A stretch of DNA of 42,992 nucleotides from a virus (IMGVR_UViG_3300042264_000081), one strand, 5' to 3'. Shown: positions 11,785 through 39,872, numbered from the stretch's first letter. Numbers and translations are program-made. The notes: generated from the sequence alone by a model not told the origin.

Positions 11785-11845
11785 TTATTAACATAACAAT
11801 TATATTTATCCCACTCGTCTAACATTCCACTCAGAAAGGTAAAAT

Positions 11846-13345
11846 ATGTCCATATACACCAACGTCTACAAAGACCGCCGCACCGGCATGTACTACTATC
11901 GTAAGGTTATCCCTCCCGAACTGAGGGAGACGTTAGGACGTACTGAAATCCGTAGGAGCCTCAAAACCAAGGCACCCGGACAGGCGAAGATTGCGGCTCT
12001 AGCCGTAGCTATGGACGTAGAGAACCAGCTACAGCAAGCCCGCCAAGCGTCTGCACGAACCGACAAAGAAATAGCCGCCCTAGCTATCGAATGGCTATAT
12101 TTTCAATATGATATGGAAAATATGGATACGTACCTCGAAAAGGGTACGTTCATAAAAACCGATGATGAATTAGTTTCTTCAATCAATGCATTCATAAAAG
12201 AGAAAGGCATATCCCTTTCCGAATTTGATTATGATCGGTTCCATAAGCGTTCAATGCGTATGGCTATCGAGGTGTTCGGAACTGCTACCGGCAAGACTCC
12301 CCTATGGGAAACCTATCGGCAAACGTTCCCCAAAACTGAAATTGAGAAAAAAGCACCGGTTGTTATTACGATAACGGACCTTTTGAATAAGTGGAAAGCC
12401 GAACGCAACCCAGGCAAACAGACGGCTCACGAATTCACGATGAACGTTGAACGGTTCGTTAAGGAATTCGGCAACATGAATGTTAAGGATATTGATAAGG
12501 CATTAATGAGGGAGTTTAAAGACCGCCTCATTAATATGCCTAAGATTATTCGCGGCGAACAATTGCGTATGTCAATGTCGGAAGTGATTGCTTCCCAGGC
12601 ACCCGGCTATCAGAAAGTTTCAGCTAAGACAGTTAACAAGTACCTTGGTTATATCGGTATCATTTTTAATTGGGGGGTTAACAATGGCTATATGGAAATC
12701 AACCCATCTGCCCGGCTTTCAGTGAGTGAGAAAGGTAGCGATAAAGCCCGCATCGCTTACACACCGGAAGATATGCAGAAAATCATTGCTGCCGTGTCTG
12801 TCCATAAGAACGACAAGGCTACAGCCGAACGCTATTGGCTAACGGTACTCGCCATGTATACAGGCGCACGATTGGAGGAATTGGGGCAATCTGATATAGC
12901 CGATATCAAGAACCAAAACGGCATCATATATCTTGATATCCATAACAATGGAGAAGATAGGAGTCTTAAGACTCATAGCTCTAAGCGGTTCGTGCCGCTT
13001 CATGCAGATTTGCTAGAGCTAGGGTTTATGGATTACGTGAAGTCATTGGACGGAACAAAGCTGTTCCCCAATCTGAAACCTAATGTGAATGGTTCTCTGA
13101 CTGCTACGTTTAGTAAGTGGTATAACAAGTACGCTAGGCGAACGGTTGGCATTGAAGATAGCCGTAAGGTGTTCCACTCATTCCGTCACGCCTTCAAAGA
13201 ACGGTGCCGTGAAGCTGGCATCATGACAGAGGTACATGACAGGCTAACCGGTCATACCCCTGCGAACGTTGGCGGTAGCTATGGCGATTACCCCTTAACG
13301 GTTCTCTCTGAGGCTATAGGCAAACTCAGATTTCCTATCGTTTGA
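11846..13345 (+). CDS. int: tyrosine integrase with DUF6538-like N-terminal domain
   Basis: YYYRKVIP.EL...GR.EIRRSLKT N-terminus; YTGARLEE, LKT, FHSFRH, TGH and Y catalytic residues. Confidence 0.93.
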   Translation: MSIYTNVYKDRRTGMYYYRKVIPPELRETLGRTEIRRSLKTKAPGQAKIAALAVAMDVENQLQQARQASARTDKEIAALAIEWLYFQYDMENMDTYLEKGTFIKTDDELVSSINAFIKEKGISLSEFDYDRFHKRSMRMAIEVFGTATGKTPLWETYRQTFPKTEIEKKAPVVITITDLLNKWKAERNPGKQTAHEFTMNVERFVKEFGNMNVKDIDKALMREFKDRLINMPKIIRGEQLRMSMSEVIASQAPGYQKVSAKTVNKYLGYIGIIFNWGVNNGYMEINPSARLSVSEKGSDKARIAYTPEDMQKIIAAVSVHKNDKATAERYWLTVLAMYTGARLEELGQSDIADIKNQNGIIYLDIHNNGEDRSLKTHSSKRFVPLHADLLELGFMDYVKSLDGTKLFPNLKPNVNGSLTATFSKWYNKYARRTVGIEDSRKVFHSFRHAFKERCREAGIMTEVHDRLTGHTPANVGGSYGDYPLTVLSEAIGKLRFPIV

Positions 13346-13588
13346 AACCTGTTTCTTTCCATCTGGCAAAACAATAACTGTCACGAATGGATCATTAGTA
13401 AGGGGTATCAGCGATTGCTCTAGCTGATACTCCTTTTCTATATACGTTCCACATTTCTCGCATTTCACTTCTAGAAATCCGACAATCATTAATCCGAACA
13501 TAACGATAAACATAACGAACAATACAAACGTCATTGCCTTTCCGCTATTATCGAATATCACTTTTAAAAAATCCGCCCAACCACTCAT
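13295..13588 (-). CDS. single-pass membrane protein (possible lysis accessory)
   Basis: Hydrophobic segment TFVLFVMFIVMFGLMIVGFL; TAAATA box upstream. Confidence 0.55.
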   Translation of the reverse strand: MSGWADFLKVIFDNSGKAMTFVLFVMFIVMFGLMIVGFLEVKCEKCGTYIEKEYQLEQSLIPLTNDPFVTVIVLPDGKKQVSNDRKSEFAYSLRENR

Positions 13589-13688
13589 AGCACTTACCCA
13601 TTTCTAGAACATATAACTATTTACCCCTATCGATACATAAACTTTATTTCGCATTCCCGACACATATGCGACACTTTATTACAAATCG

Positions 13689-13696
13689 TATAAATA
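13689..13696 (+). promoter_or_regulatory. T4-type late promoter box (terminase operon)
   Basis: Exact TATAAATA, 27 nt before ATG 13724. Confidence 0.65.
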
Positions 13697-13723
13697 AGGA
13701 TACGAAATAATGGGTATTTTATT

Positions 13724-13891: not shown

Positions 13892-14339
13892 AGAGAAAGC
13901 GGAACATTTAGCGCATCTGAAAAAGAAACGAACCACTCGTAAGGGACTTAGAAACAAGTATCAAGATCCCAATGAAGTTCTTAGGAAGAATTTGAATAAG
14001 GCAAAATCCATAGCGTTGCAGTTCTGGAAAGATAACATTAGTGAGGCATTGGCTTATATCGACGTAGAGAACCAGATCCCCCCACGCCCAGGACCGGACG
14101 CTACACCTACACAGGTTATGCAATACAATAAGATGCTTCAATCCATGGCGATTACCAAACGTCAATATGCTTTGAACATACGCCAGTTATCTAAAATCCT
14201 TTGCGCTGATTTCCAGAAAGACGACAGAGGTATTATTTCCGGTAAAGAGAATATCAAAGCCGCTATGAAATTGCAGCAAGAAGGTATGTCTATTATTGAA
14301 GAAGCAAGAGCAAAATTGAGAAAAAAGGATAATGGATGA
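13878..14339 (+). CDS. probable terminase small subunit
   Basis: Basic helical protein overlapping the terL start; AAGGAG RBS; positional call. Confidence 0.55.
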   Translation: MMDNKEKAEHLAHLKKKRTTRKGLRNKYQDPNEVLRKNLNKAKSIALQFWKDNISEALAYIDVENQIPPRPGPDATPTQVMQYNKMLQSMAITKRQYALNIRQLSKILCADFQKDDRGIISGKENIKAAMKLQQEGMSIIEEARAKLRKKDNG

Positions 14340-15891
14340 TAAATGCACGTTTTATGAATTCGTTTTTATATGGAATGAATTATGCGGATATGATGTTCCT
14401 GAAATACATGAACGCTTCATAAATTTTATTGAGACTACCGAAGGTGTATATGACAGAAGAATCATTTACGCATTTCGTGAGTCCGGTAAATCTTATATCA
14501 TTTCATTATATGTCGCTTGGAAGATTTACTTAGATGCAAACTTCACTGCGGTTATAGTATCTGCCGAAGGTAACTTGGCCACTGAAAGAGCTAGGTTCAT
14601 TAAGGAAGTTATTGAGACACACCCTTTAACGAAACACTTAGCTCCTACAAAAGAAAACTTAAAACGCTACAATGCCAGTTCGGAAACCAGCCAACTATTA
14701 CGCAGCACATGGCGAAAGAACAACTTTACGGTAATCAGAAGCAAGGTTGATCTTGCTCCTACATGCCGTGTTCTTTCTATCGGTTCATCCTTAGCCGGTG
14801 CCCACGCTGATATTTCAATCATTGATGATGCTGAATCCGAAAAGAACGTACAGACTTCCAAAAGCCGTGAAGATTTGAAACGTAAGTTTTCTCATTTGCT
14901 TTCTGTATCTCAGAACAGAATGCTTGTAGTTGGCACACCGCATCATGAAGAAAGTCTATATGAACATCTACGTGAACATTCTGATTTTCATTGGCTAACA
15001 CAAACGCCTTATAAAGACGGCTCCCCACCTTCGCCTAAGTGGTTAGATGGCGATTTCTCCGCTTACCCTGGCGAACCAATCTGGCCGGAAGTGGTATCTA
15101 TCGAGCGACTACAGACGACTAGACGAAACTCTAGTACCGGCTTCTACATGTCTCAGTACATGTTGATTCCGTCAACAGTCACGGACTCTGTACTAGAACC
15201 AACCGCTATCAGGAATTACAAGCTAGACCTTAGAGAAAGTGATTTCGAGAGAACCGCCTTTGGTAATCCGAAAATCAGCATTGGTGAATTGTCTGTAAGA
15301 AAGATTGTCGGTTATTGGGATAGTGCGCTAGGTCAATCTTATGGGGATAGGTCAGTACTAGCTATAGCTGCCATGATGGATAATAACGACATTTACGTAT
15401 TGGATATAGTCACGTTGCCGGAAGCCGATCTAACGTTGGAACGTCCATTTGAAAAGCAATTTCGTTCTGTCTTAGCTGCGATGAAGAGATATCATTGCCG
15501 GGAGATTTACATAGAAAGCAACTTCATTAAGACATTGCCTAGCGAATTGGCGGTATATGCGAAGGCGGTTCAACAGAAGATCAAGGTTCACACTGTCAAC
15601 AGAACAAGCTCTCAAAACAAAAAGAAACTTATCACTGACACATTACAACCGGTTATCAGCTTTGGACGTTTATATATTCCGCCTCATGTCCGTTCTCACC
15701 CGCATTTTCTTATGGAAGTGAAGCATCATCCTTATTCAACGAAAGATGACTGTATCGACGCCTTAACCGGTGCGATCATGCATCTTCCAGGGGTTAAAAG
15801 CCAAGCTCATAAGGCTCCTGCAATTCGTCACGGTTTCGGAAATTCGGAAATGGGAAATAATATTATCAACCGATACACCCTAGGTTCATAA
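14332..15891 (+). CDS. terL: terminase large subunit, T7 gp19-like
   Basis: AFRESGKS Walker A, IIDDAE Walker B, VVGTP, YWDSALG and DDCIDAL nuclease motifs. Confidence 0.92.
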   Translation: MDDKCTFYEFVFIWNELCGYDVPEIHERFINFIETTEGVYDRRIIYAFRESGKSYIISLYVAWKIYLDANFTAVIVSAEGNLATERARFIKEVIETHPLTKHLAPTKENLKRYNASSETSQLLRSTWRKNNFTVIRSKVDLAPTCRVLSIGSSLAGAHADISIIDDAESEKNVQTSKSREDLKRKFSHLLSVSQNRMLVVGTPHHEESLYEHLREHSDFHWLTQTPYKDGSPPSPKWLDGDFSAYPGEPIWPEVVSIERLQTTRRNSSTGFYMSQYMLIPSTVTDSVLEPTAIRNYKLDLRESDFERTAFGNPKISIGELSVRKIVGYWDSALGQSYGDRSVLAIAAMMDNNDIYVLDIVTLPEADLTLERPFEKQFRSVLAAMKRYHCREIYIESNFIKTLPSELAVYAKAVQQKIKVHTVNRTSSQNKKKLITDTLQPVISFGRLYIPPHVRSHPHFLMEVKHHPYSTKDDCIDALTGAIMHLPGVKSQAHKAPAIRHGFGNSEMGNNIINRYTLGS

Positions 15892-15904
15892 CCCACATTC
15901 CTGT

Positions 15905-15969: not shown

Positions 15970-16407
15970 ATGGCTAAGGCTCCCGCTTCCTCGCAGCCCA
16001 TGCTTGCCGGTTTCAAACTGGTCACTGAGGCAAAGCCCATCGGGAATGCAGCGGTACAGAAAGACCCTATCGCCAACTTCAAAGGCGGAATCGACAAACA
16101 GCTAGAATTCGTTGAACTGGAGTTGGCAGGTAAGCCCCTGCCCATGACGAATAAGGGACGCAAGGTGCGTCTGGCCTACTTCCGCAAGGGTGGCGTCTGG
16201 TACATCACGTTGAAGTACGGGAACACGAACCTCCTGATCGATGGTCGCGGCACTGTGGAAGCTGGCCCGACGCTGGAGAACGTGAAACAGGCGTTTGAAG
16301 CCATCAGGAACGCGGCGGACAACGAATTGAGGGAACCGATCACCGAAGCTGCCGACGCTATCGGTGCACGGCTTAAGGGTCGTACAGGACGCAAGAAAGC
16401 CGCATAG
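15970..16407 (+). CDS. moron protein, DUF6641-like
   Basis: GGAGG RBS, higher GC than neighbours, own terminator; family call from memory of the WY.TLKYG motif. Confidence 0.55.
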   Translation: MAKAPASSQPMLAGFKLVTEAKPIGNAAVQKDPIANFKGGIDKQLEFVELELAGKPLPMTNKGRKVRLAYFRKGGVWYITLKYGNTNLLIDGRGTVEAGPTLENVKQAFEAIRNAADNELREPITEAADAIGARLKGRTGRKKAA

Positions 16408-16594: not shown

Positions 16595-19162
16595 TTATCG
16601 TGGGATTGTATGAAACGTATAGAACAGTAGACCAGTAGTTAGTGCTGTTTTATTTGACACAGTTACAAGAACGTTTGTTCCTGGATCACGAGCCGCAATA
16701 GTTGGTGTATTTAAAGCACCCAGAGTCGCCACAGCAAGATTGTGATTAGCCACCACTGAATCATCATTTACTGCCGCTGCGGTTGAAATAAAACCACTAC
16801 TTAAGCTAGGAGTACCGCCACTTGGCACCACAACTACCTGCTCTGTTATTATTGCAACTATCTGTCCAACTCGGGCAGTATATACGGGAACGAAATTGAC
16901 AGTTCTCATATCGAGAACCGCCGTATATTGCAATCCAGTTCGAAGCGAAGTTGAGGCGTTCGTAAACGTTCCTCCACCTGTCCGCCCACGTGATCCGATA
17001 AAAGGATCTAAGCAATTCGAAGCGATATCAAAGCTAGTCGCAATGGCACCAATTACATGATAATTGTCAATAGTGAAACGATCGCTATCAACGAGCTTCA
17101 CCATAGTAGTTGAAGTTGCTCCCGCAGCAATTTCGACTTTGAGATTATTAACAGAACAATCATCGGAACCATTAAAATCTACAGCAATACCATTAGTTGG
17201 CAGTTCTTTAATAGTAAGATTGGTAACTTGATGATCGTCTCCATTATTAGAGAAGAATCCTTTTACGCAACGAATCGCGTTAATGTTATTCCATACCGCC
17301 TTGCTACCATCTTGTGCACCCGCCGCAGTGTGGAAATCAATTACTGTAATATTATTATATGTATTTGAAAATGCGTCGTTACCGGAACTATCATCTTTGT
17401 GCTGGACCGCAATACGGGTTATTTCGTCCCCTTCATACAGTTCAAAATGCATGTTGCTATATATGTTGCCATGACAACCATTTGACGTTAATCCATGACT
17501 CCATAATTTATATGCACTGAAATTCTCCAAAACGTTACCAGTCGCTTCTGTCGCCAAACGCCCCGACGAGCTTCTGTTGTCGCTGAGATGAAACTTGTGA
17601 GAAGCCCCAACGCCATCGGCTGTTATATCGATATATATGCCTCTGATTGCATTATAATGTGAAGAAGCCACTCGAATCGCGTTCTCGTTCAACGCTACAA
17701 GCCAATAATAAACATCATGGGTGAGCCCTCCAATGGAAGTACCCCCTCCATTGTCGTACCTCATTACCTCGCCCTGCGCACGCCCATGCGCCGTCAGGGT
17801 GATTGAATCTGTTACAGGATCAACATCGCTCGACCCGTCGAAAGTAATAGGAATAGTTCCGTCGTTGGCGGCGACGGTGTAGGCAATACCGGTCATTTCT
17901 CCGTAGGCACCATCAAGTATACAATTATTGCATCCATCCATGCTTATGACGCCGCCGCCTCTTTCCGCTTCGTAATCCACCACAATCTCATTGATGTGCT
18001 TAATATTGCGGAACGATGTGTTGTCACAATCCAGTGCCCATACCGTCCGATCATCAATATTGGTGCCGACGATGTTCTCAATGAGGCTATCGTGGACCGA
18101 ATTAAAGTAGATCCCTGCATATGTTCCGTTATTGGCTCGTGCAGTCTGCTTCAGTCCAAAATTACGAAGCCGAACGCCAGTTAATGGGTTGGCAAGAGTC
18201 CCGTTAAATACCATCAATACGAATCCGCTTGGCGTGCCGAAGTGAAGAATACTACTATACGGATCAATCCCCTCAATGCTCACATTGCTTCTACCGATGA
18301 TTGAACTATCGAAATAGTAGGTTTCGAAACCGATCATAAGCGAGATGGATGCCGATGTGCTGGCGATCAGTGCATTGAGTTTAGTTGTATTGGAACTTGC
18401 GTTCCCTGCACCGGTACGCATACCGATCTGGGAAAAATTATAGCAGGACGACCCACTTAACTGCTTCCAACGATTACCATTGTTATCAACTACAGTAAAT
18501 CTTCCGGTACTGTCGAAACGCTCTGATACCGTCGAGTTATCGGTTCCGTCCTTATAATACATACCTTCGCCGCCGTCGCCCGGTGTATAATACCCTTTTA
18601 ATAAGACATGGCTTGGCGATTCCGCTAATTCTAATAGCGTTAATTCTTCAACCGATTCCAACTCAACGGTAGTAATTCCCTGTCCTATCGTCGCTGGTGT
18701 ATATAATTTAACATCGGAGGCTGCGTCAAATCCGAATATTTTGTTCGCTCTCTGCGTTGGTATCTCCAATTCTCCGGATGTATCTGTGATTTCTAACTTT
18801 AACGATCTGTCAATATCCCTGTTATGCTCTTGAAGCTTCATCCACAATCTATCGATATCTTCATTAATGTTTACCGCACGGTATGCGCCTTCTTCCTGAT
18901 AATCGATAGTTCTTACCGTTGGGATTTCACGATACATAACAATGACCGCACCTGAAGATGGCACGTGATCTGTTATGAATGTTACGGTTCCGCCATTATC
19001 TTCACCTTCACCGGTAACGTTATAATCTGTTCCTCTAACCTTTAGTGTTCCATCAACATAAACAACTATGTCGTCTTTTTCAAATATCTCAAACGGATAA
19101 GAGAATGACGCTTGCCCAGAACTTATGTATTGAACACGTGTTACATTATTTTCAATAGCCAC
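16595..19162 (-). CDS. tail fibre/tailspike with T7-type N-terminal anchor and beta-helix (depolymerase-like) body
   Basis: FSYPFEIF...VYVDG...DYNVTG N-terminus, GYYTPGDGGEG motif, parallel beta-helix repeats. Confidence 0.88.
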   Translation of the reverse strand: MAIENNVTRVQYISSGQASFSYPFEIFEKDDIVVYVDGTLKVRGTDYNVTGEGEDNGGTVTFITDHVPSSGAVIVMYREIPTVRTIDYQEEGAYRAVNINEDIDRLWMKLQEHNRDIDRSLKLEITDTSGELEIPTQRANKIFGFDAASDVKLYTPATIGQGITTVELESVEELTLLELAESPSHVLLKGYYTPGDGGEGMYYKDGTDNSTVSERFDSTGRFTVVDNNGNRWKQLSGSSCYNFSQIGMRTGAGNASSNTTKLNALIASTSASISLMIGFETYYFDSSIIGRSNVSIEGIDPYSSILHFGTPSGFVLMVFNGTLANPLTGVRLRNFGLKQTARANNGTYAGIYFNSVHDSLIENIVGTNIDDRTVWALDCDNTSFRNIKHINEIVVDYEAERGGGVISMDGCNNCILDGAYGEMTGIAYTVAANDGTIPITFDGSSDVDPVTDSITLTAHGRAQGEVMRYDNGGGTSIGGLTHDVYYWLVALNENAIRVASSHYNAIRGIYIDITADGVGASHKFHLSDNRSSSGRLATEATGNVLENFSAYKLWSHGLTSNGCHGNIYSNMHFELYEGDEITRIAVQHKDDSSGNDAFSNTYNNITVIDFHTAAGAQDGSKAVWNNINAIRCVKGFFSNNGDDHQVTNLTIKELPTNGIAVDFNGSDDCSVNNLKVEIAAGATSTTMVKLVDSDRFTIDNYHVIGAIATSFDIASNCLDPFIGSRGRTGGGTFTNASTSLRTGLQYTAVLDMRTVNFVPVYTARVGQIVAIITEQVVVVPSGGTPSLSSGFISTAAAVNDDSVVANHNLAVATLGALNTPTIAARDPGTNVLVTVSNKTALTTGLLFYTFHTIPR

Positions 19163-19198
19163 ATTTTTTGCCTCACGTTCTTTTCATTATTTATGCAA

Positions 19199-23481: not shown

Positions 23482-23484
23482 TCA

Positions 23485-26241: not shown

Positions 26242-26262
26242 ATGTTTTTATTTCCTTTCCTA

Positions 26263-26775: not shown

Positions 26776-26804
26776 GGAACAGAATCTCCTAATATTTCTA
26801 TTAT

Positions 26805-27326: not shown

Positions 27327-27601
27327 TTTCTTATCTCCCTTTTTGTTCTAGGTATTCCTACCTAAAACTATTTAGAGAGATTCACCAAAAATGGTGTTCA
27401 GCCGTTGATTTCCCTCAGTTTTTTATATGTATCAGGGTCGTACAGTCTTAACTCTGTCATGATATCCGGTTCATATGTACGTGGTCGATATTTAAACGTT
27501 CCAGTTCTTCATATAGCTTTTTGACTTGTTCTAGTGCGTTGTGCATATTCGGTTTCCTCTTTCATTTATTTAACTATTGCTTGCGTTTTTGATGTATAAC
27601 C

Positions 27602-27705
27602 ATAAATAGAATGTGAGAACTTGTTCATTCTCCAAATCGTTTTCTTGTCACTCCTGACTACGCCAGATGGTTTATTCCCTTTCACCATCTGGCGTTTGTT
27701 TTTTT
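27602..27705 (+). ncRNA. candidate small RNA or leader RNA
   Basis: ATAAATA box at 27602, no ORF, 11-bp hairpin 27661-27694 plus T-run. Confidence 0.4.
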
Positions 27706-27763
27706 GAGAACAGCACATAGATTAAGACCGGCACTTTCGCCAAACGACAGAAAGGGAACTGAC

Positions 27764-27922
27764 ATGAACAAATATATGAAACTCGCACTAACCATCGCAG
27801 CATTCTTAGGAGTGCTAACGTTTACGGCTCTCTTTGCACCAAAAGCAATCTTCATCATGCTTATCATGGGAATTGCAATGCTTTGGTATCCTGTTAAAAA
27901 AATGATGAAAGAGGGGGAATGA
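27764..27922 (+). CDS. small membrane protein (52 aa)
   Basis: AAAGGGA RBS; two hydrophobic segments; coupled to the next gene. Confidence 0.65.
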   Translation: MNKYMKLALTIAAFLGVLTFTALFAPKAIFIMLIMGIAMLWYPVKKMMKEGE

Positions 27923-28410
27923 ATATGAAAATTAATGGTCTTGAAATTACGTCAATATCCGCTTCATACCAAGCCGATAAGGAAAATGGATTTTCGTTTA
28001 GCATTGATAACAAAGTCCCGGCTAAACAACGCAATGCATTTATTAATGATGTCGAATTTCTACGCGGAAGAATGCAGGCAAGCAGCAAGGGCAATTGTTT
28101 CGATATGCTAGAGAAATTTATCGAATGCTTTATTCTATATGAAAAAGGTGTAACCACAGACACCACGACACACATAAAAATGGTGACAATGGCAACGGCT
28201 CTTCTGTGGTACATGGTTGATAACGGATACATCACACAAGATGAAAATAATGGTATACAATTTGGCGCTTTGTCTACCAATCCTGAGAACGGCAAGGTAC
28301 GTATTCATGTCATTAGACCAGGAAACCATTCGCCTGCGGAAATTGAACGAGTACAGAATGAGATGGAGACTACCGCATACATGAAGAAATGGTCACGCGA
28401 ATCAAGTTGA
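27919..28410 (+). CDS. hypothetical protein (163 aa)
   Basis: GAGGGGG RBS; long ORF in AT-rich DNA. Confidence 0.75.
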   Translation: MNMKINGLEITSISASYQADKENGFSFSIDNKVPAKQRNAFINDVEFLRGRMQASSKGNCFDMLEKFIECFILYEKGVTTDTTTHIKMVTMATALLWYMVDNGYITQDENNGIQFGALSTNPENGKVRIHVIRPGNHSPAEIERVQNEMETTAYMKKWSRESS

Positions 28411-28438
28411 AACTTACACGTTTTCTACATACCTAACG

Positions 28439-28600
28439 TAAATATAATAACTGATGTTAGCCGGGCATCAAAGTTGGTTGTTTTTTTTGTATAAATACAT
28501 AAATAGGTATAGGAAGGTAGCTCCTTCTGAAATCCCCAATAAAAGAAAAACAAAAACCTTAACGCCCGGCATAGCGTTAGGGTTTTTTCTTTTTAGAGGA
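28439..28600 (+). promoter_or_regulatory. structured leader of the replication gene: three TAAATA boxes and two terminator-like hairpins
   Basis: Boxes at 28439, 28490 (TATAAATA) and 28499; hairpins 28452-28470 and 28552-28587, each with a T-run. Confidence 0.6.
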
Positions 28601-28608
28601 TATGCCAA

Positions 28609-31344: not shown

Positions 31345-31485
31345 GATGTGTTCACATTATGAATTTTGCAGACTTATTCTCGCTCCTATAATAAGTATTA
31401 ATAAGATGCGCTAACAAGTTCGCAAAATCACTCATTCATTCATTTTAGGGGGATAGGGAGGCATTGAATGCAGGATGGGCATTTT

Positions 31486-31824
31486 TCAATCACATGGGAA
31501 TGCATTTGATACTTTAGCCACTATCAAGCTTGGTGCCATGAAGTGCCGCTTCTCTGGTGTTTCTGACAAGAACTTAATAACTATGTCCGCTACCTGTTTC
31601 CTTGTCACGTTATCTGGAAGACAATTCTTAAATTCATTGGCAATTCCATATACGTTCACACTATCGACCACACCTAGAATGTACATGGAACAGGCAACTA
31701 TATCTGTCTCACATACCTGATGAAGCCTGTTGCCGTCAAAGAAATACTTAACCATTTCGTCATTAGCCATAGCAGATGATATAGAAAACAAACCATACAG
31801 ACATATGGCAATCATGTTTCTCAT
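31486..31824 (-). CDS. Rap1a/Tai family immunity-like exported protein
   Basis: Signal peptide; GNRL...C...C..YI.GV.D...CLP..VT..Q...V.KFL...PE.RH..A..L......AFPC pattern. Confidence 0.8.
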   Translation of the reverse strand: MRNMIAICLYGLFSISSAMANDEMVKYFFDGNRLHQVCETDIVACSMYILGVVDSVNVYGIANEFKNCLPDNVTRKQVADIVIKFLSETPEKRHFMAPSLIVAKVSNAFPCD

Positions 31825-32726
31825 AGCTCATTACTCCATACGCAACAAACATAACGCATCAATGAAAACCAACTGAGTAGAATTAAGCAATCGTAATCGT
31901 AATTGGACATTATCAAGTTATATGGAATGATGAAGAATGGCAGAATTCCGCCATTTATGTATGACAATACGTTTATCACATAAGTTATATGAAATGAATG
32001 CATATACACATAATGGGAGAAATGCTTAGTTTTTGGTGATTTATGAGTGAATCTTTTAGTGTCATTTATCTGCATAGTGCCGCAGCCCCCCCGCCCCGTT
32101 CCCTCCCCTATCCGTACAGCGGCGTTCTCTGTAGCTCCCCATTGCCTCACATGCCTAAGCCCAGGCGCACTATCAGTGCCGTTACCCTCGCTCATTCCTG
32201 ACTGTCATGCCTAAGCCCAACCGATACCCATACCCAAGCTCTAACAATATTCCATGATGCATATTGTCGGATATTGTTCATTATGTGAAGTGATTATCAG
32301 TACTCAGGAAGTACCTGTAACTATCCGATTGCCCCTAGTTGGCGAGTACTGACACTCATATGTAATGGCGTGCCTCATTTCGCACATGCACCATGGCTGA
32401 TTACTTGTCATGTCGCGTTGCACGATGTGCCTGCATAGAGCCTCACTGGTGGGCTTTCATGGTGCCTGATGTGTCTCAGTCTGTCACGTCCTGGCGTTGA
32501 TGTGCGGCGATCCCTGCGGGCCACGTGGCTATCAGCGGCGATCATAGCTCATTCATTCCCCCAGGATTCCTAAGCCCCTCCCCTATCCATTTCCCCAGGC
32601 ATCGACCAAGGGGGGGTAGGGTCATTGCACCATATGTGGGGGGTTGGCGAAGGGTGGCCCCCAAAATGTGGGCGCGGCGTGTTCTTTATAGTTCGGAAAA
32701 TTATATGCATACCATTTTCAAATAAC

Positions 32727-32798
32727 CTTTCATGTCTCCATTCATGCAAACTTTCATGTCTCCATTCATGCAAACCTTAATGCAAACTTTCATACACT
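32727..32798. repeat. tandem 12-bp repeat array (six degenerate units; two exact 24-mers)
   Basis: CTTTCATGTCTCCATTCATGCAAA x2, then CCTTAATGCAAA and CTTTCATACACT. Confidence 0.85.
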
Positions 32799-32869
32799 CT
32801 GAATTAAACCCATAATCACAACAATCATCATTCTTAAATACCATCAGTTAATGATGGAGAATAATATGA

Positions 32870-33409
32870 ATGATAGATCCTATTGATGAGGTATTGAGAC
32901 ACGAAGGAGAATATACGGATAATCCCAAAGATAAGGGAAATTGGCTTCGTGGTAAGTTAGTTGGTACAAAGTATGGCATTACGGGAGCTACATTAGCTTC
33001 ATGGTTAGGCAGAAGTGTCACTAAGGATGATGTTAAGAACCTTACAGAAGAAGAAGCTAGAGAGATTTATGAGATACGTTATCTTACTGGCCCTAGGATT
33101 CATACGTTACCTAATCCGCCTCAGACGTTGATTCTTGATATGGCTGTTAATCATGGGCAGAAAACGGCAATCATGATGTTGCAGAGAGTTTTAAACAAGG
33201 CGGGTTTTGGTCCTGTTGATACTGATGGCATCATGGGGCCACAGACAAGGAATGCGACTATTAAGGCTCAATCGGAAATGGGTAATTATTTACAGAATGC
33301 GATTGTTGAAGAGCGTATCAATTTGTACAAAGCGATAGTTAGAAATGATGCCAGTCAAAGAACGTATATTAGAGGATGGTTGAATCGTGCAGAAAGTTTC
33401 AGATTGTAA
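32870..33409 (+). CDS. endolysin, glycoside hydrolase family 108 with PG-binding domain
   Basis: HEGEYTDNPKDKG, TKYGIT, DMAVNHG, DGIMGPQT, GWLNR motifs. Confidence 0.92.
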   Translation: MIDPIDEVLRHEGEYTDNPKDKGNWLRGKLVGTKYGITGATLASWLGRSVTKDDVKNLTEEEAREIYEIRYLTGPRIHTLPNPPQTLILDMAVNHGQKTAIMMLQRVLNKAGFGPVDTDGIMGPQTRNATIKAQSEMGNYLQNAIVEERINLYKAIVRNDASQRTYIRGWLNRAESFRL

Positions 33410-33722
33410 GATTGTTAAGAAATCATGTGAGCGATGTGACTTGTTAAAGTCTATTAATGAATTCGCTTATAATAATACAAGATATGGTGCGGCCGGTTAT
33501 CAGAATATTTGTTCATCGTGTATGATCGTTCTTAGGAAATCTAACCAGACACCTAAAGGACCGCAATTAAGCGATTCTGATATGGATGATATTGCTGTTA
33601 TGCTTGCTACCGGTTACAAACCGAAAGTTATAGCTGGAAAATATTGCGTGCGTATTCAGAGAATTTATGACGAAATGCGAAAGATTACACGAAATTCTAC
33701 TGTTTGCAGTAAATATAAATGA
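33387..33722 (+). CDS. Zn-finger plus HTH protein (no nuclease core seen)
   Basis: CERC...CSSC and C-terminal IAGKYCVRIQRIY helix-turn-helix; start uncertain. Confidence 0.55.
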   Translation: MQKVSDCKIVKKSCERCDLLKSINEFAYNNTRYGAAGYQNICSSCMIVLRKSNQTPKGPQLSDSDMDDIAVMLATGYKPKVIAGKYCVRIQRIYDEMRKITRNSTVCSKYK

Positions 33723-33760
33723 TACGATTTCATACGAAATTGCAATAGGAGAAACGGGAA

Positions 33761-33976
33761 ATGACTAAAACGCTTACAGGATACAGACAGTTAACGGATG
33801 AAGAGATTGATACTATCAATGCTCTTACAGATATCGGCACTATATTACAAGAAATGTTGGATGAATTGAAGGATTGGCCCACTGTTGACCAGCGATGGTT
33901 AGCGATTGCCAGAACTGATTTTCAAAGAGCGTTTATGGAAGTGAATAGAGCTATCAGTTCGCCCTCAAAGTTCTGA
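33761..33976 (+). CDS. acb2: Acb2-like cyclic-nucleotide sponge (anti-CBASS)
   Basis: GYRQLTDEEID..N and RWLAIARTDFQ...M...RAI..P..F match the recalled Acb2 pattern GYRDLSQEEID..N / RWLAIGKTDIQ..MM...RAIAQPDSF. Confidence 0.85.
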   Translation: MTKTLTGYRQLTDEEIDTINALTDIGTILQEMLDELKDWPTVDQRWLAIARTDFQRAFMEVNRAISSPSKF

Positions 33977-34013
33977 GTGCAATCGGAACACAAACAAATT
34001 TTAATAGGAGAAT

Positions 34014-34472
34014 ATGACAATGAATTCCAATGACATAGCACGCCAGTACTTATTGACTAAAAGCGATAAGGTTGGCCAACAGAAACTAGATGCATCATTA
34101 TATGTGTTTCTTGATTCGATGATTAAGATGATTAAGGATTTAGTGCCTTCTTTCAGAGACGTAGTTAGCTTGGATGACTTCTCCGGGTTCATCGGAAAAG
34201 ATACTATATTTGAGGGTACTATTACGGCTCCCGATTCCGACATTATAGGTTGTCTTGACTCTGATTTAGTACAAAACGCCACAGCACATGCATTGACTAA
34301 AGCCATTCTGGAAACATTTGAAGGAACAGGATTTGTTAGGGGCCTTCATCCAGATTTCATTTTGAAGAATTCCAAAGTTGGATTAGGCGTCGCTTACAAA
34401 AAGAATAAGTTAACGTTCATCGTGAAGACGGTTTTTTCCATTGATCCGTTCGAGATTAGTGGAAAGGCTTAA
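34014..34472 (+). CDS. hypothetical protein (152 aa)
   Basis: AGGAGA RBS. Confidence 0.75.
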   Translation: MTMNSNDIARQYLLTKSDKVGQQKLDASLYVFLDSMIKMIKDLVPSFRDVVSLDDFSGFIGKDTIFEGTITAPDSDIIGCLDSDLVQNATAHALTKAILETFEGTGFVRGLHPDFILKNSKVGLGVAYKKNKLTFIVKTVFSIDPFEISGKA

Positions 34473-35006
34473 TGTCATACTTTGATAGAGCATAACACAA
34501 ATAAGTTTTAATAGGAGAATATGAATATGATTTATGATTTGGTAGGACGACAACAGAGACTCACACAGGCTCAAAACTTTATCAGCACGCTAACATCAAC
34601 TCTCGCTTGGAACGGAGAACGTTCTAATTTTCGCTGTCCATCAATTTACGTTGTGCCTGATGAAGATATTAAGGAAAATCCAGAACGCTATTCTGTTGGC
34701 GCATTATACAATTTCATTATCTTGTCCGGTGACTTTTCCCGCATAGTCGAAACGTCATATAGAAAACAAATGGCAATATTGATAGCGGAGGAAATGTCTA
34801 GGGAATTAGGAACAGATTCAAGGATTGCATACGTAAGCCGTCTTATTGGATCGATTAGCCGCGACCTCAGTACATTTCGTGTAGAGTACACACCATGCGT
34901 TTATCATAGACCAACTACATTAGCCGTTCTTTGCTCTGGCGATTGCCTTACGGAAGTTCCACCACAGGCAAGGCATTATGATTAATGTCATACTTTGATA
35001 GAGCAT
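34470..35006 (+). repeat. 24-bp direct repeat flanking one gene cassette
   Basis: TAATGTCATACTTTGATAGAGCAT at ~34470 and ~34983. Confidence 0.85.
34521..34985 (+). CDS. hypothetical protein (154 aa)
   Basis: AGGAGA RBS, leader nearly identical to that of the previous gene. Confidence 0.75.
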   Translation: MNMIYDLVGRQQRLTQAQNFISTLTSTLAWNGERSNFRCPSIYVVPDEDIKENPERYSVGALYNFIILSGDFSRIVETSYRKQMAILIAEEMSRELGTDSRIAYVSRLIGSISRDLSTFRVEYTPCVYHRPTTLAVLCSGDCLTEVPPQARHYD

Positions 35007-35137
35007 CATTCGCTTATGATGATGGGTGTTTATTGATCGTTCACCCAGGTCATCCGCCTATCAAGGTTCATTTGCCTTATGATGGCGAAGAACCGTTTGT
35101 AGAATTTACAGAACCACAATATGAAACAGAACATTAA
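34985..35137 (+). CDS. hypothetical protein (50 aa)
   Basis: Not in track; TAATG coupling; MSYFDRASFAYDDG... Confidence 0.55.
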   Translation: MSYFDRASFAYDDGCLLIVHPGHPPIKVHLPYDGEEPFVEFTEPQYETEH

Positions 35138-35150
35138 GGAGAATTATTAA

Positions 35151-35324
35151 ATGGGCGTAGTAGCAGCAGCAGCAGTAGTAGCCGCAGCGGGGGGAGCGTG
35201 TTCATCAATTTTTTGCTGGCTTCCAATCATGGTGTTTGTAGGGGGTTATATTGCACTTCTCGTCGCAATGTTTCTATATCTCACAATCAAATGGCTTATA
35301 GCCAAAATAACCAAACAAACTTAA
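35151..35324 (+). CDS. small membrane protein (57 aa)
   Basis: Not in track; AAGGAG RBS; hydrophobic. Confidence 0.6.
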   Translation: MGVVAAAAVVAAAGGACSSIFCWLPIMVFVGGYIALLVAMFLYLTIKWLIAKITKQT

Positions 35325-35374
35325 CTTAATAGATTTACCAAATAAAACAGAACATTAAAAGGGAGAACTATAAC

Positions 35375-35458
35375 ATGAACACAGAACTTAAATATTACGA
35401 TTACATTTCAATACCGATGTTCGCATTAGGAATGTTCTTATTATTCACAATCATTTAA
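35375..35458 (+). CDS. micropeptide (27 aa, one hydrophobic helix)
   Basis: GGGAG RBS; MNTELKYYDYISIPMFALGMFLLFTII. Confidence 0.45.
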   Translation: MNTELKYYDYISIPMFALGMFLLFTII

Positions 35459-35473
35459 CAGGAGATATATAAT

Positions 35474-35719
35474 ATGGATTCTTACAATAATACATTGTTA
35501 TGCGGATGGTTTTTAGTTCTATCGGCATTGGTACTTAGCGGATTATTCGGTTCCTTGTTAGGAGCGGTGTTCGCTTTGTCTAGTGTCGGTTTCTCATACT
35601 TTCTTAGCAACTCACAAGCAACCGGCTTCCTAGAAGAATATCAGGCTGAATTCTCATATGGAATGATTGCCTGTACCGCGTTCGCTCATATCGCTTGGGT
35701 GTTTGCCGCGATCATGTAA
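35474..35719 (+). CDS. membrane protein, holin candidate
   Basis: AGGAG RBS; 2-3 hydrophobic segments; downstream of the endolysin in the same gene cluster. Confidence 0.55.
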   Translation: MDSYNNTLLCGWFLVLSALVLSGLFGSLLGAVFALSSVGFSYFLSNSQATGFLEEYQAEFSYGMIACTAFAHIAWVFAAIM

Positions 35720-35744
35720 CGCATTTCATCATATCGAGTATCAG

Positions 35745-35769
35745 AGGGAGGCTTAGGCTTCCCTTTTTT
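35745..35769 (+). terminator. intrinsic terminator
   Basis: GGGAGGC-TTAG-GCTTCCC plus T-run. Confidence 0.75.
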
Positions 35770-35927
35770 ATTGTCAGAAATCACGTTTTGCAAAATCACA
35801 TAAATAGCTTTGTACAACTGAAAGCCTTGAAAAGTTCTGGATACCTGCATAGCAGCCCGGCAACGAATTGTAGAGAACACCTTGACGTTGGAAAAACCAA
35901 ATTTCAATTTCATGGAGAATATAATGA

Positions 35928-36743
35928 ATGGCTTATACATTAGATGATGTAGCTGTAGAAGAATTCAGCGCACGAGTAACTACCCTTTACCAACAGGAAA
36001 CCTCTTTACTTAGAGATTCCTGCACATATTACAGCGGCAACGGTCTTACAATGAACATTCCTACGTTCGGTTCTGTAACCGCCACTGTTAACAAAGCTGC
36101 AAATGCCGCATTAACAGATAGTGAAGTACCAGCCGCACAAGTAGCTGTAACTGCTAACAAGATTCACGTACCAGCTTATTTCGATAGTTTGGATCAGTTC
36201 ACTACAAACGTAAGCTATCGTGAAAACTTAGCTAAAGCAGTTGTTGCCGCAGCAATGAGAGAAGTTGATGATTTCATTCTTACCGCGTTAGACGCAACAG
36301 CAAGTTCCGCTGTAACCATGCCAACCGCCAACACGCTTAACAAAGCCGGTATCGCAAAACTTGCTTCTCTTTTGATGGCTGACAAGGTTCCAATGGCTAA
36401 TAGAACATTGGTCGTTTCCGTTGGCGCATGGGAAGATATGATTGCAGATACTACGCTTACAAGCTCTGACTATATGAAAGACAAAGCTATTGCAGACGGT
36501 TACTTTACAAACGTTCTTGGTTTCAAGGTTATTCCTCACACCGAAACTAAAGTAACTGCCACACCTACAGGACGTGAAGTTTATGCATTCCATAAAGATA
36601 TGATTGCTCTTTATGAACCTGCACCGCTTACGGTGAAAGTAAACTATTCCCCTGATAAAGACAGTTGGGTTGTATTGGCTTCCGGTATGATCAACGCTGG
36701 CTTAGTACAAGATAAAGTAAAATGGGCGGCAATTGCGGATTGA
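35928..36743 (+). CDS. major capsid protein
   Basis: EEFSARV..YQQ..S.LR, AAAMREVDDFILTAL, VP...R.LVV, LGFKVI, AFHKD pattern of podoviral HK97-fold coats; followed by a terminator and tail tube genes. Confidence 0.85.
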   Translation: MAYTLDDVAVEEFSARVTTLYQQETSLLRDSCTYYSGNGLTMNIPTFGSVTATVNKAANAALTDSEVPAAQVAVTANKIHVPAYFDSLDQFTTNVSYRENLAKAVVAAAMREVDDFILTALDATASSAVTMPTANTLNKAGIAKLASLLMADKVPMANRTLVVSVGAWEDMIADTTLTSSDYMKDKAIADGYFTNVLGFKVIPHTETKVTATPTGREVYAFHKDMIALYEPAPLTVKVNYSPDKDSWVVLASGMINAGLVQDKVKWAAIAD

Positions 36744-36772
36744 GACTAATCGGCTTTAGATAACGTAACATG

Positions 36773-36807
36773 AAAGAGAGAGGCTTAACCGCTTCTCTCT
36801 TTTTTTT
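36773..36807 (+). terminator. intrinsic terminator after capsid
   Basis: AGAGAGAGGC-loop-GCTTCTCTCT plus T-run; TAAATA box follows immediately (36809). Confidence 0.8.
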
Positions 36808-36837
36808 GTAAATATAGGAAACAAGAGGTTTCCATGA

Positions 36838-37416
36838 ATGACAACAGCAATTGATTTATGTTCCGCCGCATTAATTAAAATAGGCTCTAGTAGCATAAAC
36901 TCTTTCAATGATGGTTCTAGAGAATCAGAAGTAGCCGTTTCTCTTTATCAATCCATTAAACGTGCAGAACTTACACATACATGGAGTTTCAACGCGGTTA
37001 ACTGCATTCTGTCACGTCATGTAGATGCACCTACCGATAAGAGATATACAGCGAAATATCAGAAACCTTCTGATTGTTTGAAGATTGTTGCAGTTTATGA
37101 TTCCAGTGGAAGACACATTGACTTCCTATCAGAAAGTTCATTCATATACACGAACACGGAATCAGCCACATTGAAATATCAATCTGATTGCGATGAAAAC
37201 TTATTCCCTCCCCTCTTTGCGGAAGCGTTGATTTCTAAGCTTGCCTATTCGTTCTGCACACCGATGCAAGGCGATAGAGAATTAGCTAAATCATTATGGG
37301 GAGAATATACGGATAGAATTAAGAAAGCCCGCTTTGATGATATGTCTTCATCTATTCCGCGTTCTGTATATTCCAGTTCAACATTCGTGAAAGCCCATTA
37401 TGGTGCAAACTATTAA
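36838..37416 (+). CDS. tail tubular protein A (T7 gp11-like)
   Basis: IDLCSAAL.KIG...I.SF.DGSRE, WSF, PSDCL, FPPLF.EAL...LA motifs. Confidence 0.88.
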   Translation: MTTAIDLCSAALIKIGSSSINSFNDGSRESEVAVSLYQSIKRAELTHTWSFNAVNCILSRHVDAPTDKRYTAKYQKPSDCLKIVAVYDSSGRHIDFLSESSFIYTNTESATLKYQSDCDENLFPPLFAEALISKLAYSFCTPMQGDRELAKSLWGEYTDRIKKARFDDMSSSIPRSVYSSSTFVKAHYGANY

Positions 37417-37428
37417 GGAATTAGATAT

Positions 37429-39408
37429 GTGAAGAAACCTATTAGCTTACCTCAGATATCATTCGGTTCCGGTGAATTCGGGCCATATATGTACGGTCGT
37501 TATGATTTGGAAGATTACCAACGATCAGGGAAAACCGTAGAGAATTGGTTGGTTCTCCCGCATGGCCCTATCCAGCGAAGACCGGGATTCAAATTCGTTT
37601 ATGAACTTCCTGTATCTGGAGACAATACACGATTAGCAAGATTCAGTTTCAACACAGAACAGCAATACTTACTATGCTTCACGAATAATGCCTTACGTAT
37701 TTTTCGAGATAACGTTCTGGTATCGACTGAGACGACTACTTACCCTTTCTCTGATTTAACGGATTTGAGATTTACAACAGCCGGTGACACCATGTTGATA
37801 TTCCATGAAGATCACCCGGTTAAGGTTTTGCGTCGTAACGGTGCCGATGATGATTGGTCATTCGAGTCTGTCACATTCACTAACACGCCATTCTATCGTT
37901 ATAATTATACGGTAACTATTACACCTTCCGCAGCTACCGGAACCGGTATCACATTCACGGCTTCCGACGATTATTTTAGTTCTGATTGGGTTGGTTTAAA
38001 AATCCGTATAAGTCAGGGATTGGCTACCGTTACCGGTTATACCAGTCCAACAGTAATCACAGTTGATATTGACGAAGATTTAATTGATACCGTCGCTAAC
38101 AGCGCATTTGAGGAAGAAGCATTTTCCGTAGTTAGAGGCTATCCTAGAAGCGGTGTTTTTTATCAGAACAGATTAGTGCTAGGTGGCGTTAAATCCGCAC
38201 CTTCCTTGTTAATGTTCTCAGTGGTTGGCGATTTCTATAACTTCATTGATAAGCAATGGGACGGTGTAGAGGTTGCACCCGGAGAAACAGAGAACAGAAT
38301 TGTTACCGACGATTCAGGTTTCATTTATCAAATCACGACTGGCGAACAACAGATTATCACAGAGCTTAAAGCTTCCAGAAACCTACATGTTTTTTCAACG
38401 GAAGCGGAATCAATCGTAACCGGCGGAACCGGACAAGCCATAACGCCAACCAATCGAAACGTTTTAACTCAATCATTCTTCGGTAGTGCCAAGGTTCCTG
38501 TTTTGGATGTGGAAGGCGAATTAATGTTTGCCACTCGAAACAATCGTGAAATCAGAAAGATGGCTTATGATCTCAATACAGACAGTTTCAAATCCGATAA
38601 CAGCACATTGCTTGCCCATCATATTTTCACTTCCAATAACAAACCGGTTGATATGGCTTTGTTATCTGGATATCGAGACACACAATCAAATTTCGTATTC
38701 ATCCCTAGAACGGACGGACAATTAGCGGTTTGCACCATTAACACTAATAAGGAAGTTCTAGGTTGGTCTAGGTTCACAACCCAAGGCGATTTCAAGAGAG
38801 TTATGGTTCTCAGTTCTGATAACGGGAATGGTTTGCGTGAAACACTTTATGTGGTTGTCGATAGGGAAAACGGCACATTCATTGAGCGATTAGAGGAAGA
38901 AGACGTTTATCTAGATTCTCACTACGTCCTAACCAGCGGCACCGCTAAGACCGCTTGGACCGGAGCAACCGCCTTAGCCGATGAAACCTGCCACGTCCTA
39001 GCAGGGGGCTTAGTGGAAACCCCTGTAACCGTAGCTAGTGATGGCTCATTCGTGACGGAACAAGAAGTTACGGACGTGCATATCGGATTACCGTACACCT
39101 CTTTTGCCGAGACGATGGAATTCGTTGTGAGCATTGAAAGCATTGTGAAGAAAGGCGAACGTATAACGAAGGTTAAGGCTCGTGTTCATTGCCTGGATAC
39201 AAAAGCCCTTAATGTTGATCAGTACAGAGTTCCATTCAGACAGTTAGGCGACAACTTATTAGATCAGCCGTTACCCACATTTACCGGTGTAAAGACGATT
39301 GCACTTTCCGGTTCCGGTAGTTCTCCTACTTTGACTGTATCTGTAAGCGAACCGTTGCCTTGTACAATCTTGAATATCGTAACAGACATATTGGTACCTG
39401 ATGCATGA
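37429..39408 (+). CDS. tail tubular protein B / nozzle (T7 gp12-like)
   Basis: Q.SF..GE..P.MYGR.D...Y...N....P.G...RRPG; GYP....FYQNRL motifs. Confidence 0.9.
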   Translation: MKKPISLPQISFGSGEFGPYMYGRYDLEDYQRSGKTVENWLVLPHGPIQRRPGFKFVYELPVSGDNTRLARFSFNTEQQYLLCFTNNALRIFRDNVLVSTETTTYPFSDLTDLRFTTAGDTMLIFHEDHPVKVLRRNGADDDWSFESVTFTNTPFYRYNYTVTITPSAATGTGITFTASDDYFSSDWVGLKIRISQGLATVTGYTSPTVITVDIDEDLIDTVANSAFEEEAFSVVRGYPRSGVFYQNRLVLGGVKSAPSLLMFSVVGDFYNFIDKQWDGVEVAPGETENRIVTDDSGFIYQITTGEQQIITELKASRNLHVFSTEAESIVTGGTGQAITPTNRNVLTQSFFGSAKVPVLDVEGELMFATRNNREIRKMAYDLNTDSFKSDNSTLLAHHIFTSNNKPVDMALLSGYRDTQSNFVFIPRTDGQLAVCTINTNKEVLGWSRFTTQGDFKRVMVLSSDNGNGLRETLYVVVDRENGTFIERLEEEDVYLDSHYVLTSGTAKTAWTGATALADETCHVLAGGLVETPVTVASDGSFVTEQEVTDVHIGLPYTSFAETMEFVVSIESIVKKGERITKVKARVHCLDTKALNVDQYRVPFRQLGDNLLDQPLPTFTGVKTIALSGSGSSPTLTVSVSEPLPCTILNIVTDILVPDA

Positions 39409-39845
39409 TAGAATGTAAGGATGCTACAGAAGAAAACTTAGCGTATATCTGGCAGAATATGAGGAAGCAAGATAAGACGGAACTTACTCATATGGGCTAT
39501 ACCGATGCCAACTACATTGACAGGCTTATTAATGTCGATATGGGATTGGTTGTTTATTATGAAGGTGTTCCGCTTTGTTACATTTTTGCTCAGAAAACTA
39601 CGCATTGCGCCATAATAGGATTCTTCGCAACTCCTGAAATCAATAAGCGTCCATTTGTGTTTCATCTATTTGCAAAAGGTATCGTTGATATCTTTAAAGA
39701 AGAGCTATTCGGCTACAGATGCATGATTTGCTTATGGGAAAAATATGAACGATCCAAGAAATGGGTTAAGGCTTTAGGTTTTACCCCTACCAAACATACA
39801 ATGTTTATGAACAATGAGTTGTTCCGTTTGTATGAAAACAGATAA
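39405..39845 (+). CDS. T7 gp13-like/GNAT-fold virion assembly protein
   Basis: NMRKQDKTE and KW.KALGF motifs; position after the nozzle. Confidence 0.7.
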   Translation: MIECKDATEENLAYIWQNMRKQDKTELTHMGYTDANYIDRLINVDMGLVVYYEGVPLCYIFAQKTTHCAIIGFFATPEINKRPFVFHLFAKGIVDIFKEELFGYRCMICLWEKYERSKKWVKALGFTPTKHTMFMNNELFRLYENR

Positions 39846-39872
39846 ATAACTGAGAATTGAGAGGATAATCAT

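Follow-up and report, generated by a model that had tools for sequence, protein, structure and literature searches.

The question raised by this locus is what switches on the lytic genes of a prophage that encodes its own T7-like virion. The locus lies in a 42,992-nucleotide stretch of viral DNA (IMGVR_UViG_3300042264_000081), here called the window, in which a low-GC element is integrated at a tRNA-Sec gene and the word TAAATA, the core of the late promoters of T4-like phages, stands upstream of most lytic units. An earlier note on this DNA had proposed that the element builds its own podoviral particle and borrows transcription from an infecting phage of the T4 superfamily. The complete T7-like virion and packaging set, the matching box and the failure to find a reader in the element agree with this proposal, of which the helper part stays conditional. 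Judging from the sequences, we consider it probable that the element is a virophage-like satellite of T4-like phages, with its own virion and borrowed late transcription. With slightly less assurance, we think it likely that an undescribed, widespread class of bacterial provirophages is involved: complete podoviruses of SAR11 and other alphaproteobacteria that would have lost control over their own transcription, be switched on only by a T4-like late sigma factor and parasitise the helper while taking no structural part from it.

TAAATA occurs 22 times in the window, always within the low-GC element. This is not an excess over the 26.2 copies expected; the signal lies in the placement. The word fills 17 of 6,488 non-coding hexamer positions and 5 of 56,536 coding ones (Fisher p 2.5e-13), bearing out the predicted contrast between intergenic and coding DNA despite the lack of an overall excess; two sites scored as non-coding (27489 and 35389) fall in unannotated open reading frames (ORFs) of fewer than 50 amino acids, and the box at 33710 falls within the 3' end of ORF 33387. 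In the 80 nucleotides (nt) upstream of 33 genes, TAAATA is found 10 times in sense and once in antisense orientation, in keeping with the description of boxes that mostly face the next gene. Dinucleotide shuffles of these upstream windows gave a mean of 2.3 and a maximum of 8, and none of 2000 reached 10. Within genes, the 5 copies compare with 17.6 ± 3.3 by synonymous shuffling (minimum 10 in 300 shuffles).

All 16 sites listed in the earlier note were recovered, its coordinates counting an A or TA prefix. The distances from box to start codon are 23, 24, 25, 26, 27, 29, 30, 42, 44 and 45 nt; with the start codons chosen here, six boxes rather than seven lie 23–29 nt from the start. The boxes at 35801 and 36809 each follow a terminator-like hairpin, as described, and the genes expected to be expressed in a lysogen (the integrase, the moron at 15970 and the Rap1a-family gene) indeed have no box in the 80 nt upstream. 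The statement that a box precedes almost every lytic unit holds for most units and is overstated for the rightward units at 27764 and 28609 (a putative replication protein, Rep), which hairpins separate from their boxes.

Relatives were gathered with terminase alignments (approximately 30–33% identity). Loci of at least 4 kilobases (kb), dereplicated, with a score of at least 170 and a GC content of up to 0.55, made up the family (n = 40). In a quick tree, from which 25 of 77 terminase rows (shorter than 380 residues) were left out, the window clusters with L052 and 30 further rows (support 100), and 20 other terminase rows fall outside this group. The 40 family loci hold 54 coding copies of TAAATA against 221.4 expected, and 22 of the 26 informative ones hold less than half of the expected number; of the four exceptions, two (L057 and L065) do not belong to the tree group. 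The 514 upstream windows of the family contain 80 sense and 31 antisense copies. By comparison, 56 other low-GC terminase loci have 491 coding copies against 434.0 expected, with only 1 of 49 under half of expectation, and their 999 upstream windows contain 54 sense and 47 antisense copies; 41 high-GC loci and Dunaliella virus SI2 were uninformative, with less than one copy expected per record. In the seven long relatives examined, only one of 2,076 hexamer pairs is more strongly depleted than TAAATA (31 vs 133.7). Its single-base variants are mostly undepleted, with TATATA, TAAGTA, TAACTA, TAATTA and TAAAGA partly depleted, and several other depleted hexamers resemble restriction sites.

The boxes also recur at the same genes, namely those for the tail fibre, tail tubular A, the capsid with its leader, a small ORF before the portal and the small terminase, and their positions are kept at approximately 30% protein identity. 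The tail-fibre box is found in place in G002, G003, G004, G006, G011, G012, G013, G014 and L178; in the last of these (58% GC) it is the sole TAAATA in 13.1 kb. The integrase is box-free in 6 of 6 records. Avoidance and placement of TAAATA are a family trait.

The near-complete relatives, 28–33 kb in length and mostly marine, contain the virion genes and mostly an integrase. G011 is integrated at a tRNA-Lys gene in a single-cell genome of Pelagibacteraceae (SAR11) and is followed by host genes; in G002, G012, G013 and G014 the integrase lies beside a tRNA-like segment, as would be expected of excised forms, and G001 has neither. All are 'linear' records, possibly without one end. Protein families present in at least 7 of 15 records (396 ORFs) are all virion or packaging proteins, and the window genes common to other records are virion and packaging genes and an HNH gene only. 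Apart from the seed G011, no family terminase was found among 401 Pelagibacteraceae genomes, and none at E ≤ 1e-25 among 50,697 cultured-phage records.

Five informative cultured podoviruses with related capsids served as controls. Coding TAAATA is not avoided in HTVC010P (47 vs 39.1 expected) or MEP301 (27 vs 18.5), and the counts are similar to expectation or above it in the temperate HTVC028P (61 vs 50.1), ZP6 (8 vs 8.2) and Vibrio 1.257.O (17 vs 11.0). The SAR11 genes flanking the G011 provirus show no avoidance either (19 vs 18.4). The signal is therefore not due to AT-rich DNA, TAA stop codons, SAR11 or podoviruses that lack a polymerase.

The T4 late promoter spans 8 bp, lies about one turn from the start on its upstream side and has no −35 element (PMC2988020, PMC7892883); its first two bases differ among T4 relatives (PMC2988020), and the box of cyanophages is NATAAATA (PMC2984593). 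It is read by gp55 with gp33 and gp45 (PMC2988020, PMC7892883, PMC2984593). The word, its position, the absent −35 and probably the register of the element's boxes fit the late promoters of alphaproteobacterial T4-like phages; the conserved word, like that of the T4-like phages HTVC008M and phiM12, is the hexamer and not the T4 octamer. The hexamer core is present at 17 non-coding window sites and the octamer TATAAATA at 2 (13689 and 28490), the number claimed. TTG at −35 occurs at 1 of 12 window and 7 of 45 family sites and in a control interval at 0 of 12 and 7 of 45, showing no excess. The sixth base after the box, the predicted start register, is a purine at 9 of 10 window and 18 of 20 family sites.

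In HTVC008M, TAAATA precedes 16 of 32 late genes (classed from the annotation) and 5 of 26 others. Seven late genes of this phage (records L158 and L168) have the box exactly 5 nt before the ATG, which suggests a start at the sixth base; these genes probably give leaderless messages. In phiM12, TAAATA precedes 9 of 55 ORFs of the structural region and 3 of 102 in a non-structural stretch; the genes behind it are gp23, gp22, gp19, gp18, gp25, gp3 and mobE, and the bases upstream of the hexamer are free, as in the element. Seventeen family ORFs match HTVC008M, whose genome is four times larger, and 15 of these match neither HTVC010P nor MEP301; some of the matches reach 51–55% identity. A 2OG-Fe oxygenase of the family matches mostly cyanophages (137 of 155 records).

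The search for gp55 or another sigma factor in the element, which the earlier note had called for, found none in the window or in near-complete relatives. No member of the gp55 family (phrog_234) turned up in any of 12 virus records, of which five, including that of the window, have a completeness rating of at least 90%; a local gp55 profile run on 4,019 six-frame peptides gave a best E of 0.61 apart from the positive control. PHROG models on 58 and Pfam models on 103 ORFs of relatives returned no sigma factor, RNA or DNA polymerase, helicase, primase or stand-alone repressor, with one weak Rep-like match (E 6e-4). A single-subunit phage RNA polymerase was found neither in 34 window ORFs nor in those of relatives, the window contig continuing for up to 10.4 kb beyond the part read. 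Two candidates were set aside: the C-terminus of the HNH protein at 11323, a weak match to a sigma-70 region-4-like helix-turn-helix model of NCBIfam (E 0.0037), was rejected as a sigma factor, and the metagenome-assembled bin G015, with two family capsid genes and gp55, was given no weight as co-occurrence since binning of viral contigs is unreliable.

From the placement, avoidance and conservation of the word, its match to T4 and the gene inventory, we infer promoter activity, a reader, dependence on a helper, excision and a route of replication as follows. The prophage would lie silent at its tRNA gene, host sigma factors failing to read the boxes. An infecting T4-like phage would make gp55 (with gp33 and the gp45 clamp), redirecting host RNA polymerase to TAAATA, and the genes for terminase, head, tail, lysin, homing nucleases and the Acb2/Tad1-like protein would fire jointly with the late genes of the helper. 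For basal transcription by gp55 supercoiled DNA suffices, and the gp45 clamp at nicks boosts it (PMC2988020); an excised or replicating element is therefore a plausible template. The element would excise and replicate, that of the window probably by its own Rep and the marine members probably by helper enzymes, because no replication enzymes were found in them. Genomes would be packaged in the element's own virions, which would infect and lysogenise new cells. Stray intragenic copies of TAAATA would fire in the late phase, which would explain their loss from genes.

Several observations weigh against this reading. In the window alone, TAAATA ranks only 24th of 2,031 words for depletion, and the window terminase sits on a long branch, so that its grouping with the marine sequences may be artefactual. 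The seventh base after the box is also a purine at 8 of 10 window sites. The 27764 and Rep units, parted from their own boxes by hairpins, are left unexplained by the simple model: they would need read-through, or their boxes may make small RNAs. The T4-like phage Cr30, from a GC-rich alphaproteobacterium, favours TAAGTA, which precedes 11 of 35 late-region genes, over TAAATA, which precedes few, and the genes of phiM12 do not avoid TAAATA (7 vs 8.5), so that avoidance is no general mark of gp55 promoters. A study of pelagimyophages could not predict late promoters (PMC7029224). The best cultured matches of the window lysin and HNH proteins are in phages other than T4-like ones, and the G011-bearing SAR11 cell, whose genome is incomplete, contains no gp55 or gp23. 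Finally, 33 of the 58 and 89 of the 103 relatives' ORFs have no family match and could hide a novel reader, a fast-evolving reader would escape BLAST, and the element was read only to 42992, the contig running on for up to 10.4 kb. As a separate observation, the late promoter of Caulobacter phage Cr30 (L268, 90–140 kb) is apparently (A)TAAGTA, and its genes avoid TAAATA (3 vs 47.0).

These last points are shared by the view that the element is an autonomous temperate phage with an unrecognised late factor of its own, either a diverged gp55-like sigma factor or a new activator, its T4 likeness being inherited or convergent. The contig sequence beyond the window, the accessory ORFs, most of them without a family, the linear records of relatives that may miss an end and the Rep of the window all leave room for it. 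However, a target that stays constant over such divergence should mean a conserved factor, whereas no non-structural family occurs in more than six of 15 records and the gp55 profiles are blank in the five records rated at least 90% complete, that of the window included, and in the six-frame translations; we regard this explanation as unlikely. A facultative hijack, in which an ordinary host-driven lytic route is combined with boxes as a second trigger to escape or kill a T4-infected cell, would suit the attenuated Rep and 27764 units, which hint at a separate layer of control, and the two homing nucleases and the lysin behind boxes, which could harm the helper. Yet no repressor or early region was found, sigma-70-consensus sites are rarer than in shuffles (29 vs 47.6 and 23 vs 32.9), and the virion operons carry a box each, in contrast to one late operon transcribed by read-through. 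We hold a facultative route to be quite unlikely.

Alphaproteobacterial sigma-70 promoters often lack the last T of the −10 element, so TAAATA might serve as a −10 element for the host polymerase, aided by an activator from the host or from the element. The hosts that can be placed (SAR11) or guessed are all alphaproteobacteria, and the register is one base off that of sigma-70. Against this stand the lack of a −35 excess, the sixth-base purine peak, the near-invariant hexamer and the single-base variants, most of which are not avoided, together with the absence of the signal from SAR11 genes and from SAR11 podoviruses that use host polymerase; such an origin is very unlikely. That the word is no promoter, but a by-product of TAA stops and of spacers rich in AT, or else a site of restriction or RNA processing, seems extremely improbable. 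Two window boxes (26802 and 39843) and several in relatives do include the TAA stop of the upstream gene, and the other depleted hexamers that look like restriction sites point the same way, but the strand bias towards the next gene, the fixed spacing, the conserved positions and the signal-free AT-rich control phages speak otherwise, and a restriction site would not be retained upstream of genes.

The features of the element are listed in Table 1. GC content steps from approximately 0.70 to 0.41 directly past the tRNA-Sec gene, where GC-rich DNA is joined to the low-GC element. Element proteins are found on contigs of up to 552 kb, so that the element resides in a bacterial chromosome; the 24 listed runs that contain it are all bioreactor metagenomes, no RNA data set being among those listed, and its relatives suggest an alphaproteobacterial host. 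Its virus record is graded as a 100% complete provirus. Four contigs span 23000–42992 and continue 10,428 bp beyond the window end. The relative L178 has a similar resolvase-like gene at a distance of 1.5 kb from host genes, which suggests that little of the element is missing beyond 42992. Over 23000–42992, neither joints nor variants nor loose ends appeared in four DNA runs, contigs being unable to reveal rare excision, and a metagenome-contig scan with the last bases of the window returned nothing. A 42,290-bp contig considered to be the element was dropped, its left break possibly belonging to a neighbouring element. On its 5' side, the tRNA-Sec gene directly adjoins a second, GC-rich integrated element at 1–11100 (integrase 9356–10552, tape-measure-like and replication-like ORFs).

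Table 1. Boxes, genes and hairpins of the element in window coordinates.
Feature	Position	Strand	Remark
tRNA-Sec	11118–11215	+	Integration site
HNH endonuclease, C-terminal helix-turn-helix	11323–11784	−	Preceded by box 11803
TAAATA box	11803–11808	−	Before HNH
Tyrosine integrase	11846–13345	+	No box in 150 nt upstream
ORF	13295–13588		Preceded by box 13618(−)
TAAATA box	13618–13623	−	Before ORF 13295–13588
Full TATAAATA box	13689–13696	+	Before 55-residue ORF, putative small terminase, large terminase
Terminase large subunit	14332–15891	+	Family marker
Moron, GC 0.57	15970–16407	+	No box
Tail fibre	16595–19162	−	
TAAATA box	19188–19193	−	Before tail fibre gene
Four internal virion protein genes	19199–26775	−	gp16-, gp15-, transglycosylase-bearing, gp14-like
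TAAATA box	26802–26807	−	Overlaps HNH stop codon; heads internal virion operon
Second HNH endonuclease	26805–27326	−	Preceded by box 27369
TAAATA box	27369	−	Before second HNH
Divergent box pair	27567–27608		27567(−) and 27603(+)
Terminator-like hairpin with U tract	27660–27705	+	Between box 27603 and ORF 27764; z −4.8 for 27614–27715
Three boxes	28439–28505	+	28439, 28492 (within full TATAAATA), 28500
Terminator-like hairpin	28552–28594	+	Between three boxes and Rep start; z −3.6 for 28511–28615
Putative replication protein (Rep)	28609–31344	+	911 residues
Rap1a-family immunity protein	31486–31824	−	No box
TAAATA box	32835–32840	+	Before endolysin
GH108 endolysin	32870–33409	+	Preceded by box 32835
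TAAATA box	33710–33715	+	Before Acb2/Tad1-like gene
Acb2/Tad1 hairpin-domain protein	33761–33976	+	Counter-defence sponge family; E 2e-15
TAAATA box	35801–35806	+	Head of long capsid-gene leader; arrangement kept in seven relatives
Major capsid protein	35928–36743	+	
TAAATA box	36809–36814	+	Directly past terminator, before tail tubular A
Tail tubular A, tail tubular B, gp13-like internal virion protein	36838–39845	+	
TAAATA box	39843–39848	+	Overlaps stop codon; before portal operon
65-residue ORF, portal, 78-residue ORF, capsid scaffold	39873–42746	+	
RusA-like resolvase	42747–42992	+	Interrupted by window end

Rep has no family hit; primase-like and helicase-like motifs are suggested by reading its alignment, and its Atlas neighbours bear DEAD/ResIII and AEP domains. 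Its distant relatives number 328 at E ≤ 0.001, one of them in Methylobacterium bullatum, and it belongs to a large primase-helicase-like protein family for which Pfam, PHROG and NCBIfam have no model. No match was found among cultured phages or in the five marine relatives, which makes Rep unsuited as a family marker, and single-protein scans of viral contigs with Rep and with the capsid, as well as a two-sequence Rep alignment, gave no relatives. The stretches of approximately 90 nt between box and terminator at 27614–27705 and 28511–28594 might act as small RNAs or as attenuators in the control of Rep.

Near the moron, at approximately 15906, there is a perfect TTGACA without a good −10. The gene-free region 32080–32800 contains runs of G and of C and, after them, short direct repeats (approximately 32728–32800); it is a candidate packaging end and replication origin. 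An exact 25-nt repeat (34469–34493 and 34982–35006) and a 59-nt repeat (33987 and 34494) flank an array of small unknown genes resembling a gene-cassette array; an Atlas search with ORF 34521 gave no usable match. The capsid leader, 110–190 nt long, contains repeated GA(T/C)AAC(T/C)...GCC motifs in the window (35801–35930) and in seven relatives (L084:11286–11470, G006, G011–G014 and G002), and is possibly a structured RNA for autoregulation of capsid or scaffold. Rfam models matched nothing in the leader across three scanned stretches; in the window and the stretches of two relatives they matched only tRNA-Sec. A conserved small protein (G012:28884–29141, G013:19787–20107, G014:29150–29407, L083:8547–8801), adjacent to the integrase in 3 of 4 cases and, in G013 and G014, immediately preceded by a box, is a candidate excision or switch factor.

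Compared with known systems, the element shares with T4-like late promoters the core TAAATA without a −35 and a place before virion genes and homing nucleases, with variable bases upstream of the core as in HTVC008M and phiM12; a start about six bases downstream, as predicted here, would agree as well. In contrast, these candidate promoters belong to an unrelated, T7-like prophage of 30–40 kb without detectable gp55. HTVC010P-type phages have a T7-like virion without RNA or DNA polymerase and grow on the host alone (PMC8477408). In common with them and the prophage PNP1 (PMC8477408), the family has a related capsid (approximately 25–30% identical) and tRNA integration in SAR11. It differs in its terminase (no match at 1e-25); HTVC010P and HTVC028P lack the TAAATA signal, and HTVC010P-type phages possess an early region with a nuclease, not searched for separately in the element, and regulators. 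The single-subunit RNA polymerase of Autographiviridae-type phages was not found in window ORFs or relatives.

Integration at a tRNA gene and, as proposed here, activation by a helper are features of satellites; P4 is activated by P2 Ogr, and PICMI and PLE depend on virulent phages. The element, unlike these, encodes head, portal, scaffold, terminase, tail, fibre, ejection proteins and lysin. The satellites described (P4, PICI, cf-PICI, PLE, PICMI and EPIP) lack heads, tails or both (PMC12822802, PMC13230959). The distinction from PICIs, PLEs and cf-PICIs drawn in the earlier note therefore stands, a full T7-like virion set being present in the window and in near-complete relatives. Satellite finders seek elements without virion genes, so that a satellite with a whole particle would pass as an ordinary prophage. 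No account of the family or of gp55-dependent prophages was found in full-text searches of mostly freely available papers, and members may be listed in supplements under other names.

If the proposed dependence is correct, a family that occurs in many viral contigs from the ocean and in SAR11 would be tied to T4-like phages; members would form no plaques alone, would not respond to standard induction and might cut myophage burst sizes. The promoter word offers a simple sequence test by which further elements could be found and assigned to helpers (TAAATA vs TAAGTA). The closest parallel in logic is with virophages and provirophages such as mavirus and Sputnik, which have their own capsid and packaging genes and an integrase, use promoters copied from the late promoter of their large helper virus, and are reactivated when that helper infects. 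Virophages (Lavidaviridae) have a eukaryotic host, a giant-virus helper and a jelly-roll capsid. The element likewise has its own capsid, packaging genes, integrase and copies of a late promoter, and would be reactivated by a helper. However, it lives in bacteria and has a tailed virion of the HK97 type with a podoviral portal, so that only the logic is alike, and its helper would be a T4-like phage lending a sigma factor to the host polymerase; in that case the virophage strategy would extend to bacteria.

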